Shown: positions 26,823 through 45,911, numbered from the stretch's first letter. The stretch: DNA of 64,000 nucleotides from Thermoanaerobaculia bacterium (GCA_963816185.1 CAWFJJ010000008.1:64001-128000); one strand, 5' to 3'. Translations and numbers: made by a program. The notes: generated by a model from the sequence alone, not told the origin.

Positions 26823-28508
26823 GTGGCTAGAGATGGGAAAGCGCTTCGCGCAGGCCTTCTTCTGGTGGCACTCTGCGTTCTCGCGCAGACCCTCTACGCA
26901 ATGTGGCTGAACACGCTGCTGTACGCGCGGACCGGACCGTTCTACGATTCCATGAGCTACCTGTACGACTACGCGACGATACGGACCGTGTCGCGAGACC
27001 AGGGCATCCAGGCAGGGCTCAAACTGGCATTCCACTCCGGCACGGTCTCGCTGCCGTGGATCTTCACTGCCTTATTCAGCCCCATCCTGCCATTGTCCCG
27101 GCACGGCGGCATCTGGTTTCAGGAGATCTGGGTGCTGTCGCTGGGGTGGTCCGTCTTCTTCTATCTGACGCGATATCGCCGTCTTCCGGCCGTCCGCGCG
27201 TTTTGCCTGACGCTGCCGTTTCTCGCGTTCCGCACGGTCTTCGCCGCCAATGGAGGTGTCTCGGATTTCCGGATGGACTTGATGTTGTATTTGCTGCTCT
27301 CCAACATGGGGGTGTGGTATCTGGTCACGTATGAGACGGCATCGTGGGGACCATGGGCGGCCAGCGGGCTGTTCCTTCTGTTGGCCATTCTGAACCGCGC
27401 CACATCTCCGGTTTATATGGTGGCGATGTTCGGGCCGTTGCTGGCGGCGCGGGTATTATTTGGCTCCCGGGCCGAACGGGACCACGTGGTGACGCGCGTG
27501 CTGGCATGCTGGGGCCCGCCCGCTGTTGTCGGCTCGTTCGTTCTGATATCGAACTTCGAGCTGCTCCACTATTACTATTTTGTGTGGGGCGCCGATCCGA
27601 ACGCGCATCTACCGCTGTCTCGGAGCCTGGGCCACGTGCTGCTGGCCGGCTCCAGCATCGGAGTTCCGTTGACGCTCGTCGGTGTCCCTGCGCTGTTCCT
27701 GCACCTGTGGGATGGGGGATCGGCGCTTGGCCGCAGTTGGCGGAACTGGGCGAAGGCGCTGGATTGGAGAGTGCTGTGGCTGGGGACGGCGCCGGTGCTC
27801 ATGTTGGTGATTCGGGGTGCTGGGCTGAATCCCTTTGTCTCCATGCCCGCGGTGTTTGGCTGGCTGCTGTTCTGCTGGCTCCCCTTTGCACGAGATCTCG
27901 GGGGCCGCTCCTTGAGCCGCAACGTGATGGCCGCGCTGGTTGTGGCGGCCTGCCTGGCGAACGCCGCCCAGGGCTACTGGATGCACGTGAATCCGCCGGG
28001 GCTGGCTCCGGCGATGCCGGCGCTACGCCGCGCGGTGGACCTGATGCGCGATGACACGCTGCGCGGGGGAAGGACTCTGGCCCGCTTCGCCACCGCGCAC
28101 ATCGCGGATTTTGATGCGCTGGGCTTGCGCAGCGTGCTGGTTTTCGAGTTTGGCGCCGCGCCGCGGAACAACGCGTTGACCTATGGGGACGTGACTTTTC
28201 GTGCCGAGGACACGGGTCAGTTCGGCCCTGCGGTACGTGCCTCCTGGGACCGCGACGTGGCCGGACGCAACGACGAAGAGAAGCTGGCGACGCTGGTTTC
28301 TCTTGCCTCTAAAGATCTCGACTACGTCTTTCTGCCGGACGCGCGGTCGCTCGACTGGCTGGAGAAGAACCGCGCTTTCAACTTCGCGAACACGAAGACG
28401 CGGGCGTTGAAGTCGAGGCTGCTGGCGACCGGACAATGGGAGCCGCTGGGAGAGCCGCTGGTAGCGTCGGCGAACGAGACCGTGCAGCTCTACCGGAGGC
28501 GCCGGTAA
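26823..28508 (+). CDS. Polytopic membrane protein, putative GT-C glycosyltransferase
   Basis: About 10 TM helices, FYDS after TM1, DFRMD loop, soluble C-terminal domain; lower GC; true start may be ATG 26833 with an indel. Confidence 0.6.
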   Translation: MARDGKALRAGLLLVALCVLAQTLYAMWLNTLLYARTGPFYDSMSYLYDYATIRTVSRDQGIQAGLKLAFHSGTVSLPWIFTALFSPILPLSRHGGIWFQEIWVLSLGWSVFFYLTRYRRLPAVRAFCLTLPFLAFRTVFAANGGVSDFRMDLMLYLLLSNMGVWYLVTYETASWGPWAASGLFLLLAILNRATSPVYMVAMFGPLLAARVLFGSRAERDHVVTRVLACWGPPAVVGSFVLISNFELLHYYYFVWGADPNAHLPLSRSLGHVLLAGSSIGVPLTLVGVPALFLHLWDGGSALGRSWRNWAKALDWRVLWLGTAPVLMLVIRGAGLNPFVSMPAVFGWLLFCWLPFARDLGGRSLSRNVMAALVVAACLANAAQGYWMHVNPPGLAPAMPALRRAVDLMRDDTLRGGRTLARFATAHIADFDALGLRSVLVFEFGAAPRNNALTYGDVTFRAEDTGQFGPAVRASWDRDVAGRNDEEKLATLVSLASKDLDYVFLPDARSLDWLEKNRAFNFANTKTRALKSRLLATGQWEPLGEPLVASANETVQLYRRRR

Positions 28509-28775
28509 CGGGCGGTTGCCGAAGGCTGGGCTCGGCGCAGCCCGCGGGCCATGGCCCGGCATGTCCGAGCCTCGCGAGGACCCGGCGAGTTGACGAAAAC
28601 TGCGCGGTGTTCCCCTGCTGGCCACCGAATTTTGGCAGCGCTGGTCCTCCGAGATGCCGAACCAGGCGCCGGAAGCGGGCTCGCCGGTGACGCCCTCACA
28701 GAGTAAGATCAACATAACGTTAGGGTTCCGCACTTCATGGCGAAGATCTCACTTTCGGGCGCCCGGCAGGGGTTG

Positions 28776-28793
28776 CGGCAAGGACTGTGAATA
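28776..28793 (+). promoter_or_regulatory. Conserved upstream motif, copy 1 (CGGCAAGGACTGTGAATA)
   Basis: 16/18 identical to 33648-33665; both precede transcription units for proteins with the shared C-terminal domain. Confidence 0.55.
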
Positions 28794-28798
28794 CGGGA

Positions 28799-30909
28799 AT
28801 GAATTGGTTTCGGCGTACGGGAAGACGTGTCGCTGCCAACCGTCTCCTCGGCCGCACCCTCCTTGCGGTCGCGGTGGCGGCGGCGCTCGGAATCGCCGCG
28901 CGCGGAATGGCGCCGGCCAGGGCTCCCGAAGCTCTTCGCGGCGGCGACCCGGGCCGAATCGTCGATTTGCCGGGGGACCGCGGTCCGGGTGAGCTCCTGG
29001 AATTCGACGAACGCCTCGTTCCCGCGCTTCTCTCGCTGGCGCCTGAGGCCGAGCTCGACATGGCGGACTGGCCAGTCGCTCCCGGTATCCGACGCACCGT
29101 TCGCCTCGCGCGTCATGACATCTACGCGCCCGGTGCCCGCATGCTCCGCGTCGAGGGCGAGAGCACGAGAGAGCTTCCACGCTCGCGCCTCGTGTTCCTG
29201 TGGGGTACGGACGACGCGGGCGGCGGCGTCCTGGTCTCGATCGACCCCGAGTCGCACACGCTGCAAGGGCACTTCTACGGGCCGGACGGCGTCTACGAGC
29301 TCGCGCCGGACGCTTCCGACCGGAGCGGGCGGCACCTTCTCGCCCGGCCTGTTGTTCCGGAAGGAGCCACGTGGGCGTGCGGCGTGGAGGACTCCCCCGA
29401 GGCGGCGGCTTCATGGCAGCCTTCACCGAAAACGCGAACCGAATCCTTCGCCATCCACCCGAACGTTCTGAACTCGCTCCACAGCGGGGTCGTCGCGATC
29501 GACACCGACAACGAGTACATGGCGTACTGGTCGAACAACACGACGAACGTCACGAACTACATCGCGACTCTCCTCGCTTCGATCAACGTGATGTACGAGC
29601 GCGACCTGAACCTGCGCCTGCTGCAAGGCACGACGGTCCTGCGTGTCTCGACGACTGCGGACCCGTACACGACGACAGGCACGCCCTCGGGGAGCTGTAT
29701 AAGTGGCTCGGGCAACGCGGACTGTCCCCGCCTCGCAGAGTTCACGAACTACTGGAACTCGAACTATCCGAAGTCGACGTATCCGCGCTCCGTCGCGACG
29801 CTGCTGTCCGGCAAGCAGCCGGACTCCAGCTCGGCGTCCGGCATCGCCTGGATCGCGAGCTCGGTCTGCGGAAGCTCCTACGACTACAGCTTCTGCCAGC
29901 TCTTCAAGGTGAGCTACCTCTACGGCGACACCCTCATCGTCGGACACGAGATCGGCCACAACCTCGGCTCGCCCCACACGCACTGCTACGCGGACCCGAA
30001 GCCGGATACGTGCTACGCGGGGGAGTCGGGAACCAACTGCTTCTCGGGGACGCCGAGCTGTCCCGCTCCGCTGATGATCAACGGCTACAACGCGACGGGC
30101 ACGATCATGAGCTACTGCCAGCTCTCGCCCTGCAGCTCCGTCTCGACGCTTGTGTTCCATCCCTCGACGATCTCGCGGTACGTGGGATCCACGCTGGACG
30201 CGGGCGCTTCCTCCGGCTGTCTCGCCGTCGTCGGAGGCTCGACGCCGACCCCGACATCGACGCCCACGCCGACCTGGACGCCAACGCGGACTCCCACGGC
30301 GACCTGGACCCCTACGAGAACCCCGATTCCTACGCCGACGTCCACGCCCACGAGGACCCCGACCTTCACGCCGACGTCCACACCGACGCCTCCGCCCGGG
30401 GCGACGTTCACGCCGACGCCAACGCGGACGCCCACGCCGACTCCGCCTTCCGGATCGACTCTCACGCCGACCCCGACACCCACGCGCACGCCGACGATGA
30501 CGCCGACGCCGACGAGGCCGCCTGTCTCGGGCACGTGGCTCTACACGCTCACGCCCTGCCGCATTCTGGACACGCGCAACCCGGTTGGGCCGCTCGGTGG
30601 ACCCGCGATCGGCGGGGGTTCTCAGCGCACTTTCACGCTCCCGCCCGCGTGCGGGGTTCCGTCCAGCGCAAAGTCCGTTTCGGCGAACGTCACCGTCGTG
30701 AACGCGGGAGCCCAGGGCAACCTCGTCATCTACCCTGCGACGCTCGCCGCGCGCCGAACACGTCGACCATCAGCTTCCGGGCGGGACAGACGCGCGCGAA
30801 CAACGCGCAGCTTCTCCTCTCCACGGACGGCACGGGCCGGATCACGGTGAAGAACAACGCGGCGGGTGCACTCGATCTCGTTCTCGACGTGAACGGCTAC
30901 TTCAAGTGA
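28799..30909 (+). CDS. Secreted M12/reprolysin-like zinc metalloprotease + Pro/Thr linker + shared C-terminal domain (indel near 30750)
   Basis: Signal peptide, prodomain with [20 protein letters not shown] Met-turn; ends DVNGYFK in a second frame. Confidence 0.88.
30240..30520 (+). repeat. Pro/Thr-rich low-complexity linker (TPTPT/TPTRT repeats)
   Basis: Tandem ACGCC(G/C) degenerate repeats encoding about 90 aa of P/T. Confidence 0.9.
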
Positions 30910-33539
30910 GAAGCCCCGCCTTGAACGCCTTGATCGTTCTGGCCTTTCTTGTATCGGCGAGGGGCACCCGGGCCGCTCCGGTCGACCCGCCGGCCGCCGA
31001 GGGCATTCCAATCGCCGCAAGCGAGGTCGTTACCGAGACCACGTCCGAGATCATGGCCCGGGACCTGCGGATGTCCGTGACGGCGCCTCAGAAGACGCTC
31101 GATTTCTTCATCGGCCGGGAGGACACGAGCCAAAAGAGGGTCGACCCCGACGCCGAGAACCGGCGGCAGGGGCCGGCTGTGGGGCCGCAGTCACCGGAGA
31201 TCTCGACTGGAGGAGGTCCGCTCCTCCCGCAGATCATCGGCGTGAATGCGAACGGGCCCGGCTCGGGCTCCTCGCCGTGCGGAACGCCTCCGGACACGAT
31301 GGGCGCCGTCGGGCCCACGCAGTTCATCTCCATCGTGAACTGCAACGTCGTCTCGTACAACAAGGCGACGGGCGCCGCGGACGGCGTCCTGAACACGACA
31401 CCGAACAATTTCTTCAGCTCCGTCCGCTCGAACGGCACGAGCGACCCGCACGTCCGGTACGACCGAACCTCCCAGCGCTGGTTCCTTTTCATCATCGACG
31501 TGACGTTCCCGAACAACCGGCTGCTCGTCGCGGTCAGCAACACGGCGACGATCACCGGGTCGACGACCTGGAGCTTCTTCTTCGTCCAGACGGGTCTCGT
31601 CACTCACACGAACTGCCTCGCCGACTACCCGACGCCGGGAATCGACGCCAACGGGATCTACGTCGGTGTGAACCAGTTCTGCGGAACGTCCCTCGGCACG
31701 GCGACGTATGCCGGCTCGGACCTGTTCGTCATCCAGAAAAGCTCGGTCACGAGCGGCGGGTCGATCCACGCGACAAAGTTCACGAGCATCGGCCCCTTCA
31801 CGCCGCAGGGAGTCGACAACTCCGATCCGACGGCCACCGAGGGTTACGTGATCGGCACCAGCAATACTTCGTGGAGTCAGCTGGATCTCTTCCGTGTGAG
31901 CAATCCCGGGACCTCCTCTCCGTCGCTCTCGTCCGCCGTGCACATCTCCACGGCAAACCACGGGATTCCGATCACGCAGCCGCACATGGGCAACACCGGC
32001 GGAGCGGCGGGGCGGATCGACGGCAGCGACAACAGGCTCTATGCGGCGACGTTACGGGATGGGAGCCTCTGGACGGCCACGACGGTCGGGACCATCGTGT
32101 CGGGCGGCAACTGCGTCGGCGTGGCCGGCGGCACGGCGGACCGGGACGCGGTGTTCTGGTGGGAGATCCAGGGGATCCCGACCGGGTCGACCCCTTCGAT
32201 CCGGCAGGCCGGCATCGTCTGCGACCCGGCGGCGTCGAATCCGAACTTTTACAGCTACGGGACGATCGCCCCGAACGGCCAGGGGCAGGCCGCCCTCGGG
32301 TTCACGATCGCCGGAAGCCTGAACTTCCTGAGCGCGGGCACGGCAGGGCGGCTCGCCGGGGACACGCTCAGCACGCTGCGGTCGATCAACGTTTACGGCC
32401 CGGGCGTCGCCGCGTACAACCCGACCTTCGATCCTCGCTTAGACAACTACACGCGCTGGGGCGATTTCTCTTTCACCAGCCTCGACCCTTGCAGCGACAT
32501 GACCCTCTGGACGATCCAGGAGTATGTTCCCGTCGCCGACCAGTACGGTACGCGCTTCGCCGAGCTGAAGGGGCCGCCGCCGGCGACGCCTGCTTCGGCC
32601 AGCCCTCCCTCCGTCGCCGCCGGCCAGGCGAGCGCCAGTGTCGTCATCACCGGGACGTCGTCGTCAGGCTCCGGCTTCTACGACACGCCGTCGAGCATGT
32701 CGGCGGAGCCGTGCCGGACTCGCCTCTCGAGCGCCGTCTCCGGTGTCACGGTGAACAGCGTCACGTACAACAGCCCGACGCAGGTCACCCTCGGCATCAG
32801 CACCGTCGGCTCGACGGCGGGAGCCAAGAACGTCACGGTGACGAACCCGGACGGACAGACGGCCATGGGAAGCGGGATCCTGACGATCACGACCACCTGC
32901 ACGCCGCCGCCGGCGCCGGTCGTCACGGCGCCATCGGTCGTCGGCGCGGGTTCTCCGAACCGGATCGCCAGCGTCCCGAATCACGCGGGGTCGAGCTACG
33001 CATGGATCGTGACGAACGGGACGATCACCGCTGGACTCGGGACGAGCCAGATCACCTTCACGGCGGGGACGGCGGGGACGCCGCTGACTTTTTCGGTGAA
33101 CGAGACGGATTCCTCGGGCTGCACGAGCGCGGCGGGGACCGCGACTGCGGAGGTTGCGCCGGCGGGGTCGGCGGTCCAGTTCTACACGTTGACGCCGTGC
33201 CGGCAGCTCGACACGCGAGCAGGGGCAGGAACGCCACTCGCGGCATCTTCGACTCTGACGGTTCCGCTCACCGGGGCGCCGTGCGGCATTCCGGCAGGCG
33301 CCACCTCGGTCTCGGCGAACGTCACGATTACGCAGCCGACCGGGCAAGGGTTCTTGACCATCTATCCGGCGGACGAGACGCGGCCGGTCACGAGCAACAC
33401 CAACTTCACTGCGGGGCTGACACGCGCCAATAACGCGATTCTCCGCCTGTCGAGTGACGGGACCGGGCGCGTCAGCGTCTTCAACGGCTCGGGGGGAACG
33501 GTTCAGGTCGTCATCGACGTGAACGGGTACTTCCAGTAG
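30906..33539 (+). CDS. Secreted beta-propeller-like protein + Ig-like domains + shared C-terminal domain
   Basis: Signal peptide; PPD..GAVG, DP.V.YD, DYP, RWGDF motifs; VTVTNPDG Ig-like segment; ends DVNGYFQ; GTGA coupling. Confidence 0.82.
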   Translation: MRSPALNALIVLAFLVSARGTRAAPVDPPAAEGIPIAASEVVTETTSEIMARDLRMSVTAPQKTLDFFIGREDTSQKRVDPDAENRRQGPAVGPQSPEISTGGGPLLPQIIGVNANGPGSGSSPCGTPPDTMGAVGPTQFISIVNCNVVSYNKATGAADGVLNTTPNNFFSSVRSNGTSDPHVRYDRTSQRWFLFIIDVTFPNNRLLVAVSNTATITGSTTWSFFFVQTGLVTHTNCLADYPTPGIDANGIYVGVNQFCGTSLGTATYAGSDLFVIQKSSVTSGGSIHATKFTSIGPFTPQGVDNSDPTATEGYVIGTSNTSWSQLDLFRVSNPGTSSPSLSSAVHISTANHGIPITQPHMGNTGGAAGRIDGSDNRLYAATLRDGSLWTATTVGTIVSGGNCVGVAGGTADRDAVFWWEIQGIPTGSTPSIRQAGIVCDPAASNPNFYSYGTIAPNGQGQAALGFTIAGSLNFLSAGTAGRLAGDTLSTLRSINVYGPGVAAYNPTFDPRLDNYTRWGDFSFTSLDPCSDMTLWTIQEYVPVADQYGTRFAELKGPPPATPASASPPSVAAGQASASVVITGTSSSGSGFYDTPSSMSAEPCRTRLSSAVSGVTVNSVTYNSPTQVTLGISTVGSTAGAKNVTVTNPDGQTAMGSGILTITTTCTPPPAPVVTAPSVVGAGSPNRIASVPNHAGSSYAWIVTNGTITAGLGTSQITFTAGTAGTPLTFSVNETDSSGCTSAAGTATAEVAPAGSAVQFYTLTPCRQLDTRAGAGTPLAASSTLTVPLTGAPCGIPAGATSVSANVTITQPTGQGFLTIYPADETRPVTSNTNFTAGLTRANNAILRLSSDGTGRVSVFNGSGGTVQVVIDVNGYFQ

Positions 33540-33647
33540 AAAGCCGGGCCTGACAGTTTCTGTCGCCGTCCTCGCGGCCCCAGAGCAATAAATGGCTCCA
33601 CACGGGCCATCGTGGGCGCTTAGGGCGGTTTCGCGTCCTTAACCGGC

Positions 33648-33665
33648 CGGCAAGGAATGTGTATA
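33648..33665 (+). promoter_or_regulatory. Conserved upstream motif, copy 2 (CGGCAAGGAATGTGTATA)
   Basis: 16/18 identical to 28776-28793; about 35 nt before the GTG at 33701. Confidence 0.55.
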
Positions 33666-33700
33666 AGCGGTGAGGCGTCGACACTCCCAAGGGATCCCGT

Positions 33701-35213
33701 GTGAAGATCTTCGGTCGAAATGCCGTGCGAATCGTCTTCCTGGTGGCCGCCCTCGGGGCGGCGGGCCGGGCCTCGGCGGAGCGCCCGGTCGACGAGCGGC
33801 CAGATGGCGTTCTGGTACCAGCCGCGACGATTCAGCCGTCGAATGCGCCAGTCTCGAGATCTTCGGATGTCCGCGCGCGCCTTCCGCTCGTGGGAGAGCC
33901 GGTCAACGGGTTTCCGAACTGGCAGGAGCGGGTGATTCACGAGTGGATCAACCGGGCCCGTGTCGATCCGCAGGCCGATCTGGCCGGGTGCGGCACGAAC
34001 TGCGCAGAGAAACAGGAACTGCTATACCCCGCAGGGCCCCCTGATCTGGGACGCGAACGCTGGCCGCTCCGCGCGCTATCACTCCGCGGAGATGGGGCTC
34101 CAGAACTTCTTCGCCCACGACTCGGCCTGCACCCTCGTCAGCAACCTCAACAGCCTCTACCCGGGCAACTGTGGCGGATCCGTCTCGTGCGCCTGCGTCG
34201 GCGGCCTGGGAATGTGCAATCCCGCCTGCACCGCATGGAACGCCCGAATCGGGCTCTTTGGGGCGAGCGCCTACGGCGAGATCATCGCCGCCGGCTATTC
34301 AGATGCGAACAGCGCGTTCTACGCATGGCTGTGGGAGCAATCCACCTCCACATCGTGCTCCTTCAGTAGCGCCAACGGCCACCGCTGGCTGATCCTCAAG
34401 GCGAGCAGCGCCGTGGGCACGGGGTACCAGAGCGGCAGCGGCCCGTACAACCGCTACTACACCGGTGACTTCGCCGACTCGAACAGCCCGATCCCCAAGA
34501 TCCCTTCGGGCACGCACTACCCGCAGCAGGCCGGCTCCATCGATTTCTGGGCGAACTGGTACGACTCGGCCCCGCCTCAGAGTGCCGCCGTCAACGTGGA
34601 CGGGATCTGCCATCCGATGACGCTCCAGAGAGGGTCCGCAGCGAACGGAGCCTATGCGGCGCTGGGGATCGCAGGCCTCGGCTCGGGCTGTCACCACTAC
34701 TTCTTCACGTTCCACGATTCGTCGGGAAACGAAGTCACGTACCCCTCGAGCGGGTCCTACGGCATCGGCCTGACGGCGTGCAACGACTGGGATCTCTCGC
34801 GGCCCTTGCCCTGTACGTCTTCCCCCCCAACGGCGACCCGCTTCTATGCGGTGACTCCGTGCCGCGTCCTCGACACGCGGAAAGCGAACGGCCCGCTGGG
34901 CGGGCCGGCGCTGAACGGCAGCGGCGCCCGGCGCCTCTTCACGGTCACCGGAACCTGCAGCATTCCGACTTCCGCAAAGTCCGTGACGGTCAATCTCACT
35001 GTCACCCAGCCGGCCGCGGCGGGCAGCCTGACCGTCTTCCCCGGAAACGGCATCCCGACGGGCACCAGCTCGATCAGCTTCTCGGCAGGGCAGACGCGGG
35101 CGAACAACGCGATCCTTTATCTGGCCACGGACGGCACCGGCTCGATCGGCGTGGAGAACGACTCGGCCTCGACGGTGCAATTCATCCTGGACGTCGATGG
35201 CTATTTCCAGTGA
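33701..35213 (+). CDS. Secreted Cys-rich CAP (SCP) domain protein + shared C-terminal domain (indel near 34010)
   Basis: Signal peptide; INRAR, ARYHSAEM, FFAHDS, GEIIAAG, GHRWLIL; ends DVDGYFQ. Confidence 0.82.
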
Positions 35214-36585
35214 GCGGCTCTTTCTCGCCTTCGCCGTTCTCGCGGCTCTCGTCGCCGCGCCGGTGGCCGTCGGCCAGGCGGTGCAGGGCGGGGCGTTGCC
35301 GGGTCCCCTTCCGCTCCTTCCTCCCGACAACTGGTGGAACGTGGACGTGAGCGCGGCGCCTCTCGACCCGAACAGCGCCGCGTTCATCACCTGGATCGGC
35401 GCCACGAAAGGCCTTCATCCGGACTTCGGAGGGGATTCTTCGCCCTCTCCGCAGATCTACGGCATGCCGTACGTCGTCGTCCCGGGAAGCGAGCCCCTCG
35501 AGCCGGTGGCCTTCGACTACGCGGACGAGAGCGACCCGGGCGCCCCGGGCCGTCCTCCCGGCTACCCGATTCCCGCCGAGGCGATCTCGCAGCCGAAGTG
35601 GATCGAAGGGGGATACCCGGGGAACGCCACCGTCGGCGGCGACAAGCACATGCTCATCGTGGACAAGGACAACCGCATCCTCTTCGAGACCTGGAACACG
35701 CGGTTCAACAACGTGACGCAGTCGTGGGAAGCCGGTTCAGGGGCCGTCTTCCCCCTCGACTCGAACCAGCGGCGCCCCGACACGTGGACGAGCGCCGACG
35801 CGGCGGGTCTCGCCATCCTCCCCGGACTCATCCGGTACGACGAGGTGTCCGGCTCCGGTCCCATCCGGCACGCCTTCCGTTTCACCGTCCGTGCCACGAA
35901 CGGTTACGTCTTTCCCGCCTCGCACCGCGCCGGCTCGACGGCCGGCGCGCCACCCATGGGGACGCGCCTGCGGCTGAAGGCGGCGAAGGACATCTCGGGC
36001 TACTCCGCGGACGTCCAGAAGATCTTCCAGGCCATGAAGACGTACGGCCTCATCGTGGCGGACAACGGCACGGACATGTACGTCCAGGGGACGTACGACA
36101 CGCGCTGGAACAACGACGTCCTGAACCCCGCCTTCGCCAGCCTTCACACGAGCGACTTCGAGGTCGTCCGGCTCGGCTGGAGGCCGGTCCTCGAAACGAG
36201 CTCCGGCTCCACGTTCTTCTACACGCTCCCGCCCTGCCGCGTCGTCGATACGAGGAACGCGTCCGGACCCTACGGCGGACCGGCCATTCCGCCGGGTAAC
36301 CAGCGCATTTTCACGATCACGGGGCGGTGTGGCGTGCCGGCCACGGCGAAAGCCGTTTCAGGAAACGTGACCGCCGTCACACCCTCGTCGAACGGGGCCT
36401 TCCAGCTCTTTTCGGGGGACGACCAGCCGGGCGTCCCGACGACAATTTCGTTCGCCGCCGGAAAGACCCGCGCCAACAACGTCGTCCTGAAGCTGGCTGG
36501 TAGCGGCTCGGGAACCCTGGGGGTCGCCAGTACAGCATCCGGACCTGTCCATCTGGTCATTGACATCAACGGGTACTTTCAATGA
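35210..36585 (+). CDS. Secreted conserved hypothetical enzyme-like protein + shared C-terminal domain
   Basis: Signal peptide; DNWWNVD, GDKH, ADAAGL..LPGL.RYDE, HAFRF, YGLIVADNG; ends DINGYFQ; start is either GTG 35210 with an indel or ATG 35197. Confidence 0.8.
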
Positions 36586-36589
36586 GAAT
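36560..36589 (+). promoter_or_regulatory. Putative sigma-70 promoter embedded in the end of the upstream gene
   Basis: TTGACA-N18-GAGAAT followed by GGGGAG RBS before ATG 36614. Confidence 0.5.
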
Positions 36590-36613
36590 TTCGGAGCACA
36601 TAGGGGAGACACC

Positions 36614-37129
36614 ATGAAGAGAAAGAAGCTCGTCTCGACGTTCGCGCTGACCCTTCTTCTTGCCGGTATGTCCGTGGCAGCCCGAGAGGCCCGGGCGCAG
36701 AGCGGGCCGTTCCAGTATTTCGCGATCAGCCCGTGCCGGGTCTATGACACGCGCACCGGAGCTCCGTCTGCCGGCGGAACCGGCGGTGGGGTGATTTTTT
36801 CAGCGACGGTGCGGTCATTTCTCTTGCGCGGGCTGTGCGGGATTCCGCAGACCGCCGTGGCCGTCTCGCTGAATCTCACGGTGACGCAGCCGACCGCTCC
36901 CGCGGGCGACCTGCGCATCGCTCCAACGGGCGTCACCTTTCCGAAGGTGTCGACGCTGAATTACATCCAGGGCGACACACTCGCGAACGGGGCCATCGTT
37001 CCGCTCGGGACCGTGGCTACCGGACAGCCCGACTTCCAGGTGCTGGGTGCGGGCTGCGCGCCGTCGGGATGCACGAGCACCTTCACGTATCAGCTGATCA
37101 TCGACGTGACCGGATACTTCCAGCCCTAG
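36614..37129 (+). CDS. Signal peptide + stand-alone copy of the shared C-terminal domain
   Basis: MKRKK...ARA-Q signal peptide, then SPCRVYDTR...CGIP...NLT...IIDVTGYFQP. Confidence 0.88.
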   Translation: MKRKKLVSTFALTLLLAGMSVAAREARAQSGPFQYFAISPCRVYDTRTGAPSAGGTGGGVIFSATVRSFLLRGLCGIPQTAVAVSLNLTVTQPTAPAGDLRIAPTGVTFPKVSTLNYIQGDTLANGAIVPLGTVATGQPDFQVLGAGCAPSGCTSTFTYQLIIDVTGYFQP

Positions 37130-37180
37130 TCATAGACGCTCGATCGTTGATCGGTCTTCTTTGAGTCGGGCGACCGCGAA

Positions 37181-39102
37181 ATGAGGCGGGCCGCCCGGCT
37201 TTTTCCTTTTGCGGCGCTCTTTGCCGCGTCCCTCGCGACCCAGTCGTTCGTCATCCTCACCTCGAGGATCCCGCGGAACGCGGATCAGGCGATGGCCGGC
37301 CTCATCGCCAAGCACATCCTGGACGGCCGGGGCCATCCGGTCTTCTTCTACGGCTCGACCTACGGCGGAACGGCGGAACCGCATTTCATGGCGGTCCTCT
37401 TCGCGGCCTTCGGGGCGTCCCCCGGGGTCTACAGGGCCGGCCTGGTCTTCCTTCTCTGGCTCACGATCTGCGGTCTCACCGCGATCACCTGGAAGGCATT
37501 CGGCGCGCGCGCCGCGGTCGGAACACTCGGCTTCCTCGCGCTTCCGCCGTTCTACTTTCTCTACAAGGAGCTGACATCCGACGGTGTCTACGCCCCGGTC
37601 ACGCTGAGTGCCGTCGGAGTGCTGGCCGGCTCGGTTCTCGCGCTGCAGGCCGAGAGCCCGGTCAAGGGGCGCACGCCGTGGTGGCTCCCCGCGGTTCTCG
37701 TGGGGCTCGCGGGAGGAATCGGCTTCTGGGTTTCTCCGGGGACGCTGCCCGTGACCGTGATCGGACTCGTTACCCTCGCCTGGCGGCGTTGGGATCGATC
37801 CGCCCTCCGCTCCTTCCTGCTCTTCATCGCGTCGTTTCTCGCCGGGAGCGCGCCGTGGTGGGTCTGGAATCTCCGCCACTCCTGGCAAAGCGTTCTGTCC
37901 CCCGATGTCGCGCGGACGGACGCCCTGGGAGCTCTTCGGAACCTGCGGGATTTCCTCGTCTTCTCGTTTCCCGTCCTGACCGGGACCGCGGAGTCCAACG
38001 ACATCCACTCGCGCTCGCCGTTTCCTTTCGCCCGTCTGGCGGCCACAGCAGCCTTCGGAGTCGTGCTCCTTCTCGCGAGCCAGCAGAAGGGAACCGGGCG
38101 CCGAACCGCGCGCTTTCTCGTTCTCTGGCTGGCCGGGCTCGTCGTCGCCACCACAGTGTCCGCCCGCTTTTCGCCATTCGAGCCGCGGCTCGCCATCGCG
38201 TGGTACGTCTTCTTCGCGCCGCTCGTGGGCGCTGCCCTGGCCGCCCTGTGGGAAAAGAAGCGATTCGGAGCCGCGCTCCTCGGGGGTGTGCTTCTCATCG
38301 TCGATATCTCGAGCCTGGGCTGCCGCGAAGCGTCACCTCCGGAACAGGCGGGAGGTCACGGCCTCCATCGAACCCCTGCTCAAGCGCCTCGGTGAGCTCA
38401 ACGTGCGCGCTCTCTATGCCGATTATTGGACGGCCTATCGCGTCGACTTCGAATCGGGAGAGAAGATCATCGCCAGCCCTCTCGTCGCAGAGGACACGAT
38501 TCGATACGAGCCGTATCGGCGGGATCGTCGATACGTCTCCGAACCCCGCGGTCGTGATCCTCCTCGAGGAGGTGCCTCGCTCGGGCGAAGACGTGCCGCA
38601 ACGCGCGCGCGCGTTCGAAGAGTACCTTGCCGAGCTGCGTTTGCCCTACCGACGGGACGACGTCGAGGACTTCAGCATCTTCACCGGTCTTTCCGACTCC
38701 GCGCTCGCGACGATTCGGCGTGCGCAGTCGCTGCCGGTCCCCTTGGCAGCTTATCGCGTCGAATGGCTCGACGTCCCGAATCCTGGAGTGGTGCGCGCGG
38801 GAACGCTGGTCACGACGTCGGTCCGCGTCCGTAACGCCAGCAACTACTTGTGGAGTCCGGCTTTTCACGTCGGCGCCATGGTCCGCCGACAGGGGTCGCC
38901 ACCCGGCGAGAACGTGTCCTCGGCGCGCGGGCTGCCGGATCGATGGACGAATCCCGGGGAGAGCATCGAAGTGCCCGTGACGATCAGAGCGCCTTCGACT
39001 CCGGGCCTGTATCAGCTCGTTTACGACATGGTTTTCGAGAACGTGGCGTGGTTCTCGGATCGCGGCGGGATGCCTCATATCGTCCCGCTGGAAGTTCGAT
39101 GA
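37181..39102 (+). CDS. PMT/ArnT-like GT-C glycosyltransferase with C-terminal Ig-like domain (about 2 indels near 38320 and 38520)
   Basis: NADQAMAGLIA..I..G.HPVFFYG..YGG, multiple TM helices, ADYWTAY..F.SGE, C-terminal AP..PG.Y.L..DMV.E.V.WFS. Confidence 0.75.
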
Positions 39103-39109
39103 CCAAGCC

Positions 39110-40111
39110 ATGAGAGAGTCTTTCGTTCAATCCCTCAGGTGCCCGGCCTGCGGAATGTCCGAATGGCGGCTTTCCGTTCGTTCGAATGACAAGCGGGAGA
39201 TCCGCGAAGGCGAGCTGACGTGCGGGAGCTGCGAGAAGCATTTTCAGATCGAGGGCGGAATCGTCGATTTTCTGGACCGTGAAGATGACGGCCTCGCGCG
39301 GGAGGTCAAGGGCTGGCACGAGATGGCCGGCGCGCTGGAAGAGTCTCTCGTTCCGACGATGACGGCCCTCCCCTGGTATCCCCATGAGCCGTGGATTCAC
39401 GTGGCCCCCGACTTCTTCCAGCTCTTCGAACACGTCGATTTCGCGGGCCGCCGGATCGTCGATCTGGGCGCCGGCCGGACCTGGTCTTCGCGATTCCTCG
39501 TGACGGTCGGCCGCGCGGCGGAGGTCGTCGCCGTCGACGTTCTGAAAAAGCGCTTCCTCGGCCTCGAGACCGCCGATGTGTTCTTCGATCAGGACGGGAT
39601 CTTCTTCGAGAGAGTTTGTGCGGACATCCACCGGCTCCCGCTCCGGGACGCGTGGGCGGACATCGTGTTCAGTTGTGCCGCCATCCACCATTCTTCTGAT
39701 CCTCTGAAGCTCTTCCGGGAGGTCGGGCGGGTTCTGAAGCCGGCGGGCCTCTTCGTCTTCATCTCGGAGCCGGTCAAGAAGGAATCGATTTCGGCCCGTC
39801 AGCCGGACAACGACGAGACGCGGCACGGAATCAACGAGCACATCTACAGCTTCGCTGAATACCGTGACGCATGGCGGGCGGCCGGTTTTCGCGGGCAGCA
39901 GCTCTCGCCGCGCACCGTTCGGTACCGGGCGCTCTATCCCGACGCCGACTTCCAGAAAGGACTGTCGCCGGCCCTCGTGCATCTCACGCGCTCGAGCTGG
40001 GGGCGACGCCTCGTGACGAGGCTCCTGCGCGGCCGTTGGACCGGACCTCTCGTTTACAGATACTCGAGTCTGCCGCTGACATGCATCGTCAAGAAGCCGG
40101 TGGCGGGTTGA
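39110..40111 (+). CDS. Trm112-like N-terminal domain + class I SAM methyltransferase
   Basis: LRCPACG...LTCGSC...IEGGIVDF; VDLGAG; RVLKPAG. Confidence 0.85.
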   Translation: MRESFVQSLRCPACGMSEWRLSVRSNDKREIREGELTCGSCEKHFQIEGGIVDFLDREDDGLAREVKGWHEMAGALEESLVPTMTALPWYPHEPWIHVAPDFFQLFEHVDFAGRRIVDLGAGRTWSSRFLVTVGRAAEVVAVDVLKKRFLGLETADVFFDQDGIFFERVCADIHRLPLRDAWADIVFSCAAIHHSSDPLKLFREVGRVLKPAGLFVFISEPVKKESISARQPDNDETRHGINEHIYSFAEYRDAWRAAGFRGQQLSPRTVRYRALYPDADFQKGLSPALVHLTRSSWGRRLVTRLLRGRWTGPLVYRYSSLPLTCIVKKPVAG

Positions 40112-40147
40112 CGGTGTCCAATGTGTCCAGCGTCACCATTCACGCCT

Positions 40148-40163
40148 TGGCTCATGATTTGCG
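40148..40163 (+). promoter_or_regulatory. Putative sigma-54 promoter
   Basis: TGGCTCATGATTTGCG (TGGC-N7-TTGC) about 52 nt upstream of ATG 40216. Confidence 0.55.
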
Positions 40164-40215
40164 TCGAAGCATCTGGCTGGAGTTACGTCCAGCAATCCAG
40201 AAGGGTATGGGCTGG

Positions 40216-42192
40216 ATGAACGTCAAATTTTTGTCGGTTGCAGGAGTCGTGGTGGCTCTCGGGTTGTCAGTGCCGGCACTCGGACAAAACAACCCGCCGC
40301 TGCGCACGGGTTTCCCGCTCTTCATCAACGGCGGTGGAACACCTTACGGCCAGACGGTCGTCGCCGACCTCAAGTGGCCCGCGCCGTACGACCAGTACAA
40401 GTCGATCATCTTCACCTCCTGGAATCAGGCCACGTCTCAAGCATGGCTCTATGTCGTGCGATTCAACGGGACCAGCGCCTCCGTTCCGGCTCCGTTTCCG
40501 ATCGCGATGCCGACGCTCTGTGCCGGCAACCCGGCGGTGGGGGACCTCGACAACGACGGCGTTCCGGAGATCGTCGTTCCTTATGGCTCACAGTACCGAG
40601 ACAATTTCGTCGGCGGCGTGCGAGCGTACCGGCGGGACGGCACGCAGATGTGGGACTACCCGAGCTCGAACAACCCTCCGAGCTGCTGCGGCGCCGACTT
40701 TCCCTACGGTGTCGTCGGCAGCCCGGCGATCGCCGACGTCGACGGAGACGGATTCGTGGAGGTCGCGTGGGGGTCCTTCGACGGGAAGGTCTACCTCGTT
40801 GACGGGCGAACCGGCGCGAACAAGGCCGGTTGGCCGATCTTCGTCGGCGACACGATCTGGTCTTCACCCGTCCTCTTCGATCTCGATGGCGATGGGAAGA
40901 AGGAAGTCATCATCAGCGTCGACGACGGGCCCCAGAACGGGGGCACCCTCCACGTCTTTCGCCACGACGGAACGGGCGGCGGCGCGCCGGGAATGGTCCC
41001 GGTCCCGGAACTGCCGGGTTTTCCGATCGACTACGACCAGGCACTTTACAGCGCACCCGCAGTCGGCGACATCGACGGGGACGGGAAGCCCGAGATCGTC
41101 TTCGGGACAAGCACCTTCTACGGTAACCCTGCGCCCTGTGGAAGCGGCATCCCGCCCCTGCGCGCACGCCGCGTCTACGCCGTGAAGTGCGATGGATCCT
41201 CGGTTCCCGGCTGGCCCGTCACGACGGACGGTGAGGTCCGCACGACGCCGGCGCTCGCCGACGTCGACCTCGACGGCATCGTCGACGTCGTCGCCACCGA
41301 CATCGACTGCTCGACCGGGACACCGAAGAATTTCAAGGTCTATGGCTTCAAGGGAACCGGCTTGCAGCTCTTCAAGGCGACACCCCTTTCGTTCAGCGGC
41401 GTCAACCTGAACGCAGGCGATCCTGTGGTCGCCGACGTCCTCGGGGACGGGAAGCCCGAGATCCTCGTCCCGACGAACACGGAGATCGCCGTCTTCACGA
41501 ACACGGGGACACAGCTCACGCACAGCACCGGCTTCTCTCCACCGCCGCCTCCTGGTGTCTCGAGCTTTTACACGCCGACGTCGGTCTCTGGTGCCGTGGT
41601 CTCCTCGATGAAAGTCAGTCCGTCGTCGACCGACCCCGTGGACGTCATCGTGGTGTCCGCGTCGGACTTCCCGACGGCCTCCAACACACAAGTGACGGTG
41701 TGGAACCCGAAGATGAACCCTCTGCCCGCTCCGACGTGGGGAATGGTCCGGCAGAATCCGGCCAGAACGGCGGTCGTTCCGGGAACGCTTTCCTGTACGG
41801 CGGTGCCGCCGGTCGCGACGAAGTTCTACGTCCTTTCGCCCTGTCGCGCCTTCGACACCCGGAATCCCGCGGGGCAATTCGGCGGGCCCGCGATAGGCGC
41901 TTCCTCGAGCCGGACCTTCGATCTGGCCGGGATCTGTGGTATTCCGTCCGACGCGAAGTCCATCTCGATCAACGCGACAGTCGTAAATCCCCCGGCAGCG
42001 GGGTTCCTCGTCCTGTATCCCGCCGGCATGGGGCGCCCATCCTCGAGCACGATCAACTTCTGGCCTGGACAGACGAGAGCGAACAACGCGCTCATCCGGC
42101 TCTCCTCGGACGGCCTCGCCGGTCTCGTCGTGACGAACGGAAGTCCGGCGCCGACCGACGTCGTGGTCGACGTAAGCGGCTATTTCAAGTAG
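40216..42192 (+). CDS. Secreted FG-GAP/VCBS repeat protein + shared C-terminal domain
   Basis: Signal peptide; repeated PAxxDxDGDGxxEIV Ca-binding blades; ends DVSGYFK. Confidence 0.9.
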   Translation: MNVKFLSVAGVVVALGLSVPALGQNNPPLRTGFPLFINGGGTPYGQTVVADLKWPAPYDQYKSIIFTSWNQATSQAWLYVVRFNGTSASVPAPFPIAMPTLCAGNPAVGDLDNDGVPEIVVPYGSQYRDNFVGGVRAYRRDGTQMWDYPSSNNPPSCCGADFPYGVVGSPAIADVDGDGFVEVAWGSFDGKVYLVDGRTGANKAGWPIFVGDTIWSSPVLFDLDGDGKKEVIISVDDGPQNGGTLHVFRHDGTGGGAPGMVPVPELPGFPIDYDQALYSAPAVGDIDGDGKPEIVFGTSTFYGNPAPCGSGIPPLRARRVYAVKCDGSSVPGWPVTTDGEVRTTPALADVDLDGIVDVVATDIDCSTGTPKNFKVYGFKGTGLQLFKATPLSFSGVNLNAGDPVVADVLGDGKPEILVPTNTEIAVFTNTGTQLTHSTGFSPPPPPGVSSFYTPTSVSGAVVSSMKVSPSSTDPVDVIVVSASDFPTASNTQVTVWNPKMNPLPAPTWGMVRQNPARTAVVPGTLSCTAVPPVATKFYVLSPCRAFDTRNPAGQFGGPAIGASSSRTFDLAGICGIPSDAKSISINATVVNPPAAGFLVLYPAGMGRPSSSTINFWPGQTRANNALIRLSSDGLAGLVVTNGSPAPTDVVVDVSGYFK

Positions 42193-42207
42193 TCGGTGCG
42201 GTCCGGC

Positions 42208-42225
42208 GACCCGCAAGGGCGGGTC
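42208..42225. terminator. GC hairpin between convergent genes
   Basis: GACCCGC-aagg-GCGGGTC; no U-tract. Confidence 0.4.
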
Positions 42226-42273
42226 CGGCAAGCAGAACCGGCCCGGTCCGCCATCGCCCTCTCCGAACCGCGT

Positions 42274-42933
42274 TCATGCCGCTTTCACGGCAACGAGCCA
42301 TGTCTGACCTCCCAGAAACCACCACGCCGGACGACAGAGCAGATACGCTCGGACGAGCCACGGCTTCTGGGGTAGGCGGCTCCGGGTCGTGTACGGCAAG
42401 AACCGGGGAATTACCTCCTGAACGGTGAACCCCGAGATCTCGCACGCTTCAGCCAGCGATCGGTCCGTGAGCGCAACATGATGGTCGATGAAGTTCCAAT
42501 AGGCGCCTCCGACGAGCCGGATGTTGGGTTGGAGGACTAGCAAGCGTCCTCCAGGGCGAAGCACGGTGCGGATCTCCGCGAGCGTCGTCTCCAGGGCCGC
42601 CTTGTCCGGGAGGTGTTCGAAGAAGTTGCTGCAGAACACGATATCGACCGAATCAGACGCCACGCGTGTCGAGAGCTCTTGGCTCGGAACGATGATTTCA
42701 TCGGTGCCGGTCGGCAAGTGCCTCCCGGATATCTCTTCGATGTCGACTGCAATCCTGTGCCGACACTGGATATGTCGAAGGAACTCTCCGAAGCCGGCTC
42801 CGAGATCGAGGACGACATCCCCCGCCTTTACGTATCGCTGGAAGAAATGTCGGCAGAGCACTTGCCAGACAGCGTCTTTCGCATCCCGCTCGACTTCGGG
42901 GAAGCGAACACTGTAGATACGGTCGCGTCTCAT
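42274..42933 (-). CDS. Class I SAM methyltransferase
   Basis: VLDLGAGFGEF, SNFFEHL, VLRPGG, DHH, FLPY. Confidence 0.88.
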   Translation of the reverse strand: MRRDRIYSVRFPEVERDAKDAVWQVLCRHFFQRYVKAGDVVLDLGAGFGEFLRHIQCRHRIAVDIEEISGRHLPTGTDEIIVPSQELSTRVASDSVDIVFCSNFFEHLPDKAALETTLAEIRTVLRPGGRLLVLQPNIRLVGGAYWNFIDHHVALTDRSLAEACEISGFTVQEVIPRFLPYTTRSRLPQKPWLVRAYLLCRPAWWFLGGQTWLVAVKAA

Positions 42934-42972
42934 CGGCTGGATCCATGAGCCGCACGTTTCACGGCTTGTTGG

Positions 42973-43768
42973 CTAGCGGTGGTCGGAATCGGTGCTTTGG
43001 CCAAGGGTTCTTACCCGTTTGTAGTCGCCCCGGCTGAAGTATTTTTCGAGCCAGACGTAGAAAATGATAAAGAGGTATCTGCTTCCCATCTCCTTGAGCT
43101 TGAGCTTCGCCTCGCCAGTCCGGCGATTCCGCCAAGTGATCGGCATCGTAGTCCAGGAAAAACCCCGAACGATGGCTTTGAGGGGAAGCTCAACGGTCAG
43201 GTTGAAGTGCGGAGAGATGAAGGGGCGGCAACCGTCGATCACACACCGGCGATAGGCCTTGAAAGCGTTGGTCGTGTCGTTGAGGGGGATCCTGAAGAGA
43301 ATTCGGATAAAGAAGTTGGCAAGCCGGTTCAGGCGGAGCTTAAGACGCGGATAATCAATGACCCCGCCGCCCGGGAGAAAGCGGCTGCCGAAGACGCACT
43401 CCCAACCTTCATTCAGCTTCTGCCAGTATCGAACCGCATCGCGACAGTCGTCGCTCTCGTCGGCCATTACGATCGCTATGGCGTCGCCTGTGGCGGCATC
43501 GAGCCCGCGCGCCACCGCACGGCCGAAACCGTGAGCGCCGTCATTCCGGATGGGCGTGACGACGCCCAGGCGGCCGCGCAGGTCCTCGAGAATCTCCGGT
43601 GTTCCATCGCTGCTGCCGTCGTCGACCACGATGATCTCGTGCTCGATGCCGTGAAGGCGAAGTTCGAGATGGAAGTGCTCCACGGTCGAGGCGAGGCAGC
43701 CCCCCTCGTCTCGGGCGGGAATGACTATGGAGAGTTTCTTTAGAGGTGGAAGCGAAGAGTCCGCCATG
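42973..43768 (-). CDS. GT2 DPM1-like polyprenyl-phosphate glycosyltransferase
   Basis: SIVIPARDE, VVDDGSSD, MAD, FGSRF, DTTNAFKAY. Confidence 0.9.
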
Positions 43769-43788
43769 CAGGGTGTCGACATGTCACG

Positions 43789-44859
43789 TCAACGATCGGC
43801 GCAAGTCTCGAGCCAGTCGGGATGGCAGCGTGCATGCTCGAGGATCTCCTCGAGAATGGAATCTGTGGACCTCTGGGGAGTCCACGCCCAGGCCGCGGCG
43901 GCGCGACCGGAATCGAGCACGATCCAGGGAATGTCATAAGAACGGGAGCGGGTGTCGACGGAGATCGCCCGCGGTCCCATACGCTCCTCGCACCAGCGGC
44001 TCAGCTGTCGGAGCGAGGTTGCCGAAGCGCGACCGCCCGAGACGTTGACGACGCGAGGCCGGAGCGCCCCGGATTCAGCGAGCTGACGCTCGATGAAGGG
44101 AACGAGATCTGCGGGATGAAGGCAGTCACGCACCTGATGGCCTTCGCCATCAAAACCGATGTATTTAAGGGGCGCTGCGCGAAGCCACGAGTTGATCCAA
44201 TAGGAAAAGATCCCTTGATCCGGTCGGCCGAACTGTCCGGCGCCTGCGAGGACGCCACAGCGATTGATCCAGACCGGAAACCCAAAGAGGCTGCCATATT
44301 CAAGAGCAAGGTGTTCGCTGGCGAGCTTCGTGACGCCGTAGAGCGAGACGGGAGGAGCGGTCGAAAACTCTTCGGTGACCCCTTCGGGCCCGACGTGTAG
44401 TGGCCATGTCCGGGCAGGATCGAGCTCGAAAGCCTCGTTGACGACTCGGATGGGCAATGTGGCGAGCGGCGGAATGGAGTAGACCCGACTCGTACTCAGT
44501 AGGATAAAGGTGGCGGAGCTCCGACGGCAGAGTTCCAGAAGATTCAGAGTTCCGAGCAGGTTGTGCTCGACGAGCTGGCGAGAGGTGGTTCTCCCGTCGG
44601 CTGCCGCCAGCACACTGGGGTTCGCGGCCGCATCGACGACGGCATCGACGTCGGGCAGGCTCTCGACGTCGCTGGCAGATCTAAGGTCGCCATGAATCAG
44701 ATTCACACCGAGGCGGCGAAGCCTGATGCGGTTTGTCTCGCTGCCAGGCCGGGTCAGGTTGTCGATTCCCGTGAAAGTATGCCGGGCCCCGGCCTCGACC
44801 CAAGTTGAGATGAGCGTCGAGCCGACGAAGCCGCAGGCTCCCGATACAAGAAGCCTCAC
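43789..44859 (-). CDS. NAD-dependent epimerase (CDP-paratose 2-epimerase-like)
   Basis: [25 protein letters not shown]. Confidence 0.88.
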
Positions 44860-45911
44860 GAACTTTCCCGCCGGCGCCACGCCTCGACGATCTGCCGGAT
44901 GGTCTCTTCGAGCGAGATCGTGACGTTCCACGCTGGAAAGTGGCTTCGCATCTTTCTGAGATCGCTGTAATAGCAGATGTGATCCCCGACCCGGTTCGTT
45001 TCGAGGTAGGTGAAGACTTGCCGTTTTCCCGTGAAAGCTTCTGTGAGAGTGAACGCTTCGAGAATGCTGCAGGAGTTCGCCTTTCCCCCTCCGAGGTTAT
45101 ATACCTCGCCGGCGCGGGGGCTCCGGATGAACTCGAGGATGAAGCGCGCGACGTCCACGCTGTGGATGTTGTCTCGAACCTGTTTCCCCTTGTAGCCGAA
45201 GATTTTGTAGTCGCGACCTTCAAGGTTGCACTTCACCAGGTAACTCAGAAAGCCGTGAAGCTCGACACCGGTGTGGTTCGGTCCAGTCAGGCAGCCACCC
45301 CGGAGGCAACACGTTGGCATGTTGAAATAGCGCCCGTACTCCTGCACCATGATATCGGCGGCGACTTTGCTGGCTCCGAAGAGGCTGTGGAGGCTCTGAT
45401 CTATCGAGAACGATTCGGGGATCCCCTCGGCATAAGCGGGATCCCCATAGTCCCAGCGAGTCTCAAGTTCTTTAAGGGGAATGAGGTTGGGCGCGTCTCC
45501 GTAGACCTTGTTCGTACTCAGGTAAACGAAAGGTGCTTGAGGGCAGTGGCGTCGCGCTGCCTCAAGAAGATTGATGGTTCCGACGGCGTTCGTGTCGAAG
45601 TCGTCGAAGGGGATTGCCGCGGCACGGTCGTGGGAGGGCTGGGCGGCCGCGTGAACGATGGCATCGGGGCTGAGGGCTGCCACGAGTCGCAGAAGGCCTT
45701 CACGGTCCCGCACGTCGAGCTCGTGGTGGACGAAACCGGGAACATCACGGGAAAGCCGGGCCTGGTTCCAGCGTGTGTCTCCGGGCGGGCCGAAAAACAC
45801 GGCCCGCTGGTTGTTGTCGACGCCATGGACCTTGAAGCCTGTCAAGGCGAGGTAGGCCACGACCTCGCTTCCGATAAGCCCAGAGGATCCCGTGACGAGG
45901 GCAGTCTTCAT
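44856..45911 (-). CDS. NAD-dependent epimerase-like paralogue (CDP-paratose 2-epimerase family)
   Basis: GSSGLIG, AAQPSHD, STNKVYG, FGASK, GKQVRD, GDHICY. Confidence 0.88.

Follow-up and report, generated by a model that had tools for sequence, protein, structure and literature searches.

Why does a stretch of acidobacterial DNA in which several secreted proteins end in one and the same domain also encode that domain alone, and is the gene for the bare domain expressed from a promoter of its own? The stretch (hereafter the window) comprises 64,000 nucleotides (nt) from a Thermoanaerobaculia bacterium (GCA_963816185.1, CAWFJJ010000008.1:64001-128000; contig C8 of our genome G000, which totals 5.09 Mb in 30 contigs with a G+C content of 67.2%). 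The stand-alone gene (36614-37129) follows a fusion gene (35197-36585) whose last nine codons carry a promoter-like site; this fusion is one of five genes in the window that terminate in a domain related to the stand-alone one. A sequence-only reading had seen in this arrangement selection for separate and strong expression, as expected if the bare domain formed a lattice, S-layer or filament; that reading is not supported. The best explanation overall, to which we give a probability of about 0.5, is a conserved secreted protein that would form trimers, is coupled to a fusion gene and in this lineage would have an internal promoter boosting its expression. The more interesting result is the family itself, which is very large, unnamed, divided into two classes and apparently built on a unit of three.

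The stand-alone protein and the two domain classes

The stand-alone gene encodes a signal peptide and one domain, as the sequence-only reading had described. The signal peptide (residues 1-28, 36614-36697) consists of MKRKK, a hydrophobic core and ARA|Q, and the domain takes up about 140 amino acids (aa; about residues 33-171); a final Pro follows. The open reading frame (ORF) as listed opens at TTG 36560, the first half of TTGACA, and the real start is ATG 36614; at the position of its GGGGAG ribosome-binding site, related loci have AAGGAG or GGAGA. This copy had also been called the most divergent one, and the features named for it are present: TLANG replaces TRANN, a 10-residue insertion carries C-x4-C, and Pro follows GYFQ. 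By identity, however, it is only slightly the most divergent in the window, sharing 33-41% with the other four intact copies, which share 38-47% with one another, and its real distinction, judging from the sequences, is one of class.

A hidden Markov model built from the window copies and a separate search of the genome both gave 33 domain copies. A search of genome contigs for related loci with the single protein gave two. Within this genome the copies separate cleanly by motif: ANGAIVP or ANA(A)VVP is found in the stand-alone gene and in five N-terminal copies, and a RANN-like motif in the C-terminal tags and in two N-terminal copies; among the secreted enzymes and binding proteins encoded here, about 25 terminate in a RANN-class copy. 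The five N-terminal ANGAIVP-class proteins continue as collagen repeats (two), collagen and Kelch (one), Peptidase_S74 (one) or an unassigned part (one), and the Peptidase_S74-bearing relative matches phage tail-spike and tail-fibre families. A second candidate for a stand-alone gene, a 214-aa frame on contig C1, was rejected as the tail of a larger gene continuing from another frame, so this genome holds exactly one stand-alone gene.

Loci L095 (G000:C29:318595-320685), L096 (C30:576306-578024) and L097 (C24:405491-407518) encode secreted fibre-like proteins composed of a signal peptide, an ANGAIVP-class domain, an 'SLNG..G.LTL' segment and then collagen repeats, Peptidase_S74 or a Kelch propeller, and a truncated duplicate of L096 is situated at the very end of contig C30. 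The G000 fusions C10:2386-4293, C11:2600-4315 and C1:150965-152566 share the same last codons and the same 60 nt downstream, which reflects a duplication of recent date or else a single repeat that was assembled at the ends of contigs.

The stand-alone copy is not a sporadic truncation, the outcome that would have emptied the sequence-only reading of its subject. Among proteins of 94-300 aa, 210 matched at E<=1e-3, and about 58 of the 120 listed showed at least 57% identity, most of those with a length of 153-188 aa. In an alignment of 71 sequences (A1), the residues P40, C41, R42, C75, P78, N87, P104, N125, G126, D164, G167, Y168 and F169 are invariant, including the Cys pair C41/C75, and the motif reads ANGAIVPL. 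A FastTree tree was built from 192 domains (73 stand-alone and 119 others) taken from related loci and from this genome; the loci had been retrieved with patterns derived from stand-alone genes, so that stand-alone genes of other types could be missed. All 73 stand-alone copies fell within one clade of 84 domains with a support of 98, and the other 11 rows of the clade were three mislabelled stand-alones, three N-terminal copies from metagenome loci and five from the genome studied here. The label stand-alone or fusion changed six times on the tree, compared with about 58 times when labels were shuffled. The named relatives among the proteins come from metagenome-assembled genomes of Thermoanaerobaculia and Holophagales, both Acidobacteriota. 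On this sequence evidence, the stand-alone gene is a conserved gene of the ANGAIVP class, separate from the RANN tags.

The C-terminal copies could be a secretion or sorting tag of the kind represented by the type IX C-terminal domain, with the stand-alone protein as a by-product or decoy. About 23 genomic copies, on unrelated cargo, form the very end of the protein, with GYF[QKR] directly before the stop, as such a tag would. The domain is not always C-terminal, however: seven copies in this genome are N-terminal and one stands alone, tandem triplets and a conserved stand-alone family occur elsewhere, and no sorting-domain model from Pfam or NCBIfam matched in the six proteins tested. We regard a sorting tag as a far-fetched account of the family.

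Family size, fold and a possible unit of three

The A1 profile matched 34,102 representative proteins at E<=1e-3, 23,950 at 1e-10 and 7,760 at 1e-30. Domains of this family measure about 125-140 aa and are predicted to be secreted and to contain a disulfide. In the six proteins tested no Pfam or NCBIfam model hit the domain, Pfam giving nothing at E<=0.01 nor at E<=1, and a match of PF21592 (Bc2l-C_N, a trimeric lectin) to P0193, with an E-value of 0.14, was at chance level and was not used. The ESM Atlas returned 30 clusters of hypothetical proteins with no Pfam family common to them, and a literature search found no relevant paper by title or abstract, which is no proof that the domain is undescribed. 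Of 41 related genomes, 33 contained the domain, as did 23 of the 24 genomes of the same genus, and a stand-alone-type gene was found in at least 17 of those 24 among the matches listed. A search of 401 genomes of the phylum at E<=1e-32 recovered only the window's own gene, the threshold being too strict to inform.

Membership of the stand-alone class was read from the A1 profile score and not from stop-to-stop length, since an overlapping start can place a true stand-alone gene in a frame as long as 587 aa. With a profile made from the same alignment, the scores of the 73 stand-alone genes were 144 bits or more and those of fused copies at most 139 bits. By this measure no stand-alone-class gene was found in five same-genus genomes (G003, G008, G010, G019 and G024), which are 88-99% complete and have 11-24 domain matches each with a best score of 127.8 bits. 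The expectation that genomes with many fusions always keep a stand-alone copy was not borne out in these five.

Regarding the fold, a model computed with A1 reached a predicted local distance difference test (pLDDT) score of 89.5 and a predicted template modelling (pTM) score of 0.79 and was all-beta, while a single-sequence model (pLDDT 48.6) was unusable. A Foldseek search of the model gave no match at E<=1e-3; the weak matches were jelly-roll capsid proteins, the Bd2133 tip, PRD1 P5 and CBM36, and EDA-A1 (1RJ7) and CD40L (3QD6), which are TNF/C1q-like, were among the structural matches. The model points to a beta jelly-roll nearest to the trimeric tip of the Bd2133 fibre. The A1 profile matched no chain at E<=1 among all PDB sequences. 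Prediction of a homotrimer (three times residues 31-171) gave a median of 0.39, below the mark of 0.42, with 0.39, 0.18 and 0.72 in the individual runs and 0.00-0.02 in the controls, an outcome that weighs on neither side of the question of binding.

Copy numbers per protein were counted in the best 150 of the 34,102 representatives (P0121-P0270), ranked by total score with the stand-alone-class profile. Three copies were present in 133 of them, in 132 cases in tandem with gaps under 40 aa; twelve had six copies in two blocks of three, one had nine (the arrangement 3+3+3), one eight, two had five and one had two, and none of the 150 had four or seven. Ranking by total score would put common four-copy proteins above three-copy ones, so the count was read as evidence for a unit of three, and it suggests that three domains form one structural unit. 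Such a unit would agree with the trimer found as best fold match and with the attachment of the domain to collagen-like and S74-type fibres. P0243 has hardly anything besides its three copies; it is a 395-aa record without an obvious signal peptide and may be cut.

The closest structural parallel is the 'mosaic adhesive trimeric' fibre Bd2133 of Bdellovibrio bacteriovorus with its C-terminal tip domain (PDB 8OND, 8OK3; PMC10769870). As far as that account describes it, the tip is C-terminal and follows a beta-helix, whereas the domain studied here stands alone or is N-terminal and has a conserved Cys pair. The A1 profile detected no sequence relationship between the two (none of the PDB chains above), and in contrast to the Bd2133 trimer the present domain is a putative one, to which its tandem triplets and its fusions to collagen and S74 fibres point indirectly. 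A further parallel is offered by TNF/C1q-like trimeric jelly-rolls on collagen stalks, such as EDA-A1 and CD40L above and possibly BclA.

An alternative is a glycan-binding module, similar to a carbohydrate-binding module (CBM) or a lectin; the stand-alone protein would then be a secreted lectin in its own right and would not join the fusions in an assembly. CBM36 is among the weak structural matches, and the idea partly overlaps with the explanation we prefer. The domain has no sequence match to CBM35, CBM36 or CBM6 (no Pfam hit at E<=1), and tandem triplets, conserved stand-alone genes and the N-termini of fibres are not contexts typical of such modules. We hold an independent lectin to be rather unlikely, though worth keeping in mind.

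A lattice, S-layer or filament with the bare domain as abundant major subunit, into which the fusions would insert, had been proposed as what would account for selection towards separate and strong expression of the gene. The genome has one stand-alone gene and about 30 fusions, the stand-alone form belongs to another class than the C-terminal tags, and stand-alone genes are seen in a fraction of the genus as given above; the five genomes without the class argue against an obligatory major subunit. Codon usage gives no sign of high expression, with a G+C content at third codon positions (GC3) of 0.80 for the stand-alone gene and 0.86-0.88 for the neighbouring fusions. The nearest fold matches are a closed trimeric tip and CBMs rather than lattice proteins, and the tandem triplets point to a closed unit and not to an open polymer. 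A major lattice subunit is therefore a doubtful proposition, and its probability is low. The protein may act as filler or adaptor in mixed trimers with the fusions, a role that would fit both the gene coupling described below and the three-domain unit.

Gene coupling and the promoter-like site

The genes upstream of the stand-alone gene are tightly packed. Frame 33960-35213 extends 17 nt past the start of 35197, and 28 nt separate 35197-36585 from 36614; given these overlapping upstream genes, any promoter here would be internal to an operon-like row of co-directional genes. Related loci contributed 72 further stand-alone genes, 63 of them with enough upstream sequence, although some contigs are near-duplicates and not all are independent. 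A domain-ending gene on the same strand was situated directly upstream in 48 of the 63 informative loci. Thirteen of the 48 have a gap of -4 nt (an ATGA overlap), 12 a gap of 9-33 nt, 15 one of 61-101 nt and eight a longer one. The sequences indicate that the stand-alone gene is usually operon-coupled to a fusion gene. The 15 loci without an upstream fusion include L006 (G025) and L014 (G030), on which no conclusion rests. Upstream cargo orthologous to 35197 was confined to L004, L012 and L016, plus a partial case in L058, and elsewhere the cargo differed; what the stand-alone gene is coupled to is thus some fusion gene and no enzyme in particular.

The elements that the sequence-only reading had named are all present between 36560 and 36608: a perfect TTGACA, GAGAAT 18 nt further on and a GGGGAG ribosome-binding site. 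Together the hexamers agree with 10 of 12 consensus positions, the -10-like one keeping A in second and T in sixth place, and the distance from its end to the ATG is 24 nt, so that the predicted transcript would include both the ribosome-binding site and the start codon. The codon ending that creates the site proved unique as proposed: when the last 11 codons of all 33 genomic copies were compared, ATT GAC ATC ... TTT CAA TGA occurred only in 35197-36585. These codons are rare in the genome (ATT 8.5% of Ile, TTT 9.9% of Phe, CAA 8.1% of Gln), and their frequencies multiply to about 7e-4 for a single copy, or about 2% for any one among the 33.

Genome-wide statistics favour an informative motif. 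Across the 5.09 Mb, both strands included, 62 sites agreed with the consensus in at least 10 of 12 positions, compared with 13-36 for four permuted-hexamer controls, and a ribosome-binding site, start codon and ORF followed downstream in 13 of the 62 sites, compared with 7 of 99 control sites, from which we take the motif to be informative here. The chance expectation for a site on the right strand within 110 nt upstream of the stand-alone gene was about 7e-4. Fusion gene C28:264332-265813 of the same genome also ends in several rare codons (GAT TTG ... GTA ... TAT), and a gene with a GGGGAGG ribosome-binding site starts 26 nt after it; this gene end may be a second case of signals placed there.

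Conservation was followed in related loci. L016 is the only other locus with a close orthologue and upstream sequence; its stand-alone protein is 61% and its upstream fusion 73% identical. It reads ATT GAC GTC AAC GGC TTT CTG CAA TGA GAAT, i.e., TTGACG-18-GAGAAT, and CAATGAGAAT at the -10-like hexamer is unchanged, in flanking DNA that is well diverged. The codons that keep the hexamers are rare there as well (ATT 2 of 53 Ile, TTT 2 of 53 Phe, CAA 3 of 32 Gln). A DNA contig from run X5 is about 89% identical (39 differences, 36219-36589), without a claim of identity inside 36560-36589; its alignment stops at 36589, the last base of GAGAAT, and beyond it about 25 nt are divergent before an AAGGAG-type ribosome-binding site and an ATG appear. 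Because rare codons form the hexamers and L016 keeps them by rare codons, the nucleotides of the site look selected. The part of the sequence-only reading that concerned selection thus finds support, while separateness as a general rule does not, given the coupling in most informative loci and the 13 overlaps.

In 6 of the 10 loci of relatives in the upstream alignment, a conserved intergenic element is found ahead of the stand-alone gene. It has the form CACTACC..GAAA..CTCAGTTAGACT within 100 nt upstream in L005, L007, L008, L009, L010 and L012, all from relatives within the genus. A -10-like TAGA(C/A)T lies 25-37 nt ahead of the ATG in the four loci measured, and no -35 element was found in these loci at canonical distance from it. 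The element could be an alternative promoter or an operator.

Simple co-transcription would account for much of this. The stand-alone gene would be the last cistron of a row 33701 -> 35197 -> 36614 without a functional promoter of its own, and the hexamers and rare codons would derive from chance or from an A/T-rich, unstructured region for ribosome loading. The short distances within the row agree with it, and tight coupling is the norm in the family (25 of the 48 gaps do not exceed 33 nt, and 13 of these 25 are overlaps). The region 28000-43000 contains one promoter-like site, compared with a shuffle mean of 1.0 (standard deviation 1.1), so the local count alone is not above chance, and the -10-like hexamer is imperfect. 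Moreover, TTT CAA TGA is situated 25-36 nt ahead of the ATG, where low RNA structure is often favoured. However, ATT lies 54 nt ahead of the ATG, beyond the usual zone of structure avoidance, and L016 retains ATT, TTT and CAA even though they make up 4%, 4% and 9% of the respective codon sets there. Only 62 such sites exist in the genome, enriched ahead of genes, and conservation ends exactly after GAGAAT in two comparisons. We consider co-transcription without a promoter a real contender, short of an even chance.

Intra-operonic sigma-70 promoters offer a known parallel for TTGACA-18-GAGAAT, with a -35 element inside coding sequence, a -10 element over the stop codon, dependence on synonymous codons and a short leader (about 17 nt here) holding the ribosome-binding site. 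In contrast to those, the site is predicted in an uncultured member of the Acidobacteriota, for which host promoter rules are not established, and its -10-like element is GAGAAT. The promoter reading is plausible on comparative evidence, and the balance tips slightly towards a working promoter. In the explanation we prefer, a sigma-70-like promoter in the last codons and stop of the upstream gene would add transcription to read-through in this lineage, starting near 36596, and would raise the amount of bare protein relative to the fusion.

Several observations weigh against that explanation. The first T of a usual -10 element is missing from GAGAAT, and with 18 nt the spacer sits at the upper limit set for the scan. 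The comparison at the same position covers one further locus (L016) and one contig, and a site with at least 9 of 12 positions within 110 nt upstream was found for 7 of the 73 stand-alone genes. The stop/start overlap in 13 loci means that an own promoter is not a general property of the family. The lower GC3 of the gene, with no codon bias towards high expression, the five same-genus genomes that have no gene of the class and the selection of proteins behind the triplet count point in the same direction, and mixed trimers are purely what we infer.

Neighbouring genes and implications for the family

The features of the locus are listed in Table 1. The terminator-like hairpin downstream of the stand-alone gene is only weak evidence for an intrinsic terminator (fold of 37118-37215: -39.3 kcal/mol, z -2.06), and the true start of the FG-GAP paralogue is probably near 40200. 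The N-terminal part of the upstream fusion (35197-36200) had no Pfam, NCBIfam or PDB sequence match; in L004, L012 and L016 it is 72-73% identical, and this identity in three loci marks it as a second conserved domain without known function.

Table 1. Coordinates of the stand-alone gene, its putative signals and the related genes in the window
Feature	Position	Strand	Description
M12/reprolysin-like metalloprotease (paralogue)	28787..30909	+	Thr/Pro linker; C-terminal copy split over two frames
Secreted protein (paralogue)	30906..33539	+	877 aa; C-terminal RANN-class copy
CAP-like secreted protein (paralogue)	33701..35213	+	C-terminal RANN-class copy; two frames, 33701-34369 and 33960-35213
Upstream fusion gene	35197..36585	+	462 aa; signal peptide, ~330-aa domain, C-terminal RANN-class copy
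-35-like hexamer TTGACA	36560..36565	+	From codons (A)TT GAC A(TC) of the upstream gene
-10-like hexamer GAGAAT	36584..36589	+	Overlaps TGA stop of the upstream gene; 18 nt past the -35-like hexamer
Ribosome-binding site GGGGAG	36603..36608	+	5 nt ahead of ATG 36614
Stand-alone gene	36614..37129	+	171 aa; signal peptide, then one ANGAIVP-class domain (predicted jelly-roll)
Terminator-like hairpin, weak, then T-rich tail	37140..37154	+	11 nt 3' of the stop
FG-GAP repeat protein (paralogue)	40200..42192	+	C-terminal RANN-class copy; listed ORF opens at 39871

Some of these genes are readable only with a frame switch, namely the M12-like protease (28787-30909, with the switch inside the C-terminal domain) and the CAP-like protein (33701-35213). 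Region 37181-39102 encodes a membrane protein of about 640 aa over three frames that resembles the DUF2079 gene at 24768-26699, and comparable frame breaks were found on contigs C11 and C1. The breaks are either assembly errors or pseudogenes. Interleaved with the domain genes (24768-26699, 39110-40111 and 42973-45911) are genes encoding a DUF2079 membrane protein, a class I methyltransferase, a GT2 glycosyltransferase and two NAD-dependent sugar epimerases/dehydratases, which make this a cell-envelope glycan neighbourhood.

With regard to function, the working unit would be three domains, and the bare protein would be a homotrimer or would fill free positions in a mixed trimer with the fusion encoded just upstream. 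At the cell surface the assembly may be a module for adhesion or anchoring; the signal peptide, Cys pair and Thr/Pro linkers hint at this location, as do the DUF2079, GT2 and epimerase genes close by. A more specific, and improbable, version is a display system in which a RANN-tailed enzyme joins two bare ANGAIVP subunits, or docks onto the ANGAIVP heads of collagen-like fibres, with the internal promoter setting a 2:1 excess of the bare subunit. Its logic would resemble that of cohesin and dockerin, except that here the partners are homologous; if true, soil Acidobacteriota would organise the enzymes they secrete in a manner not yet described.

The promoter-like site offers a test case for regulatory signals in synonymous codons of a genome with 67% G+C. 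The domain itself is among the larger protein families without a name, and in one soil acidobacterium alone more than 30 secreted proteins carry it. A unit of three domains that comes in two classes, one forming the tails of enzymes and the other the heads of fibres or free subunits, would, if true, give a handle on how extracellular enzymes are arranged in these abundant and mostly uncultured bacteria.

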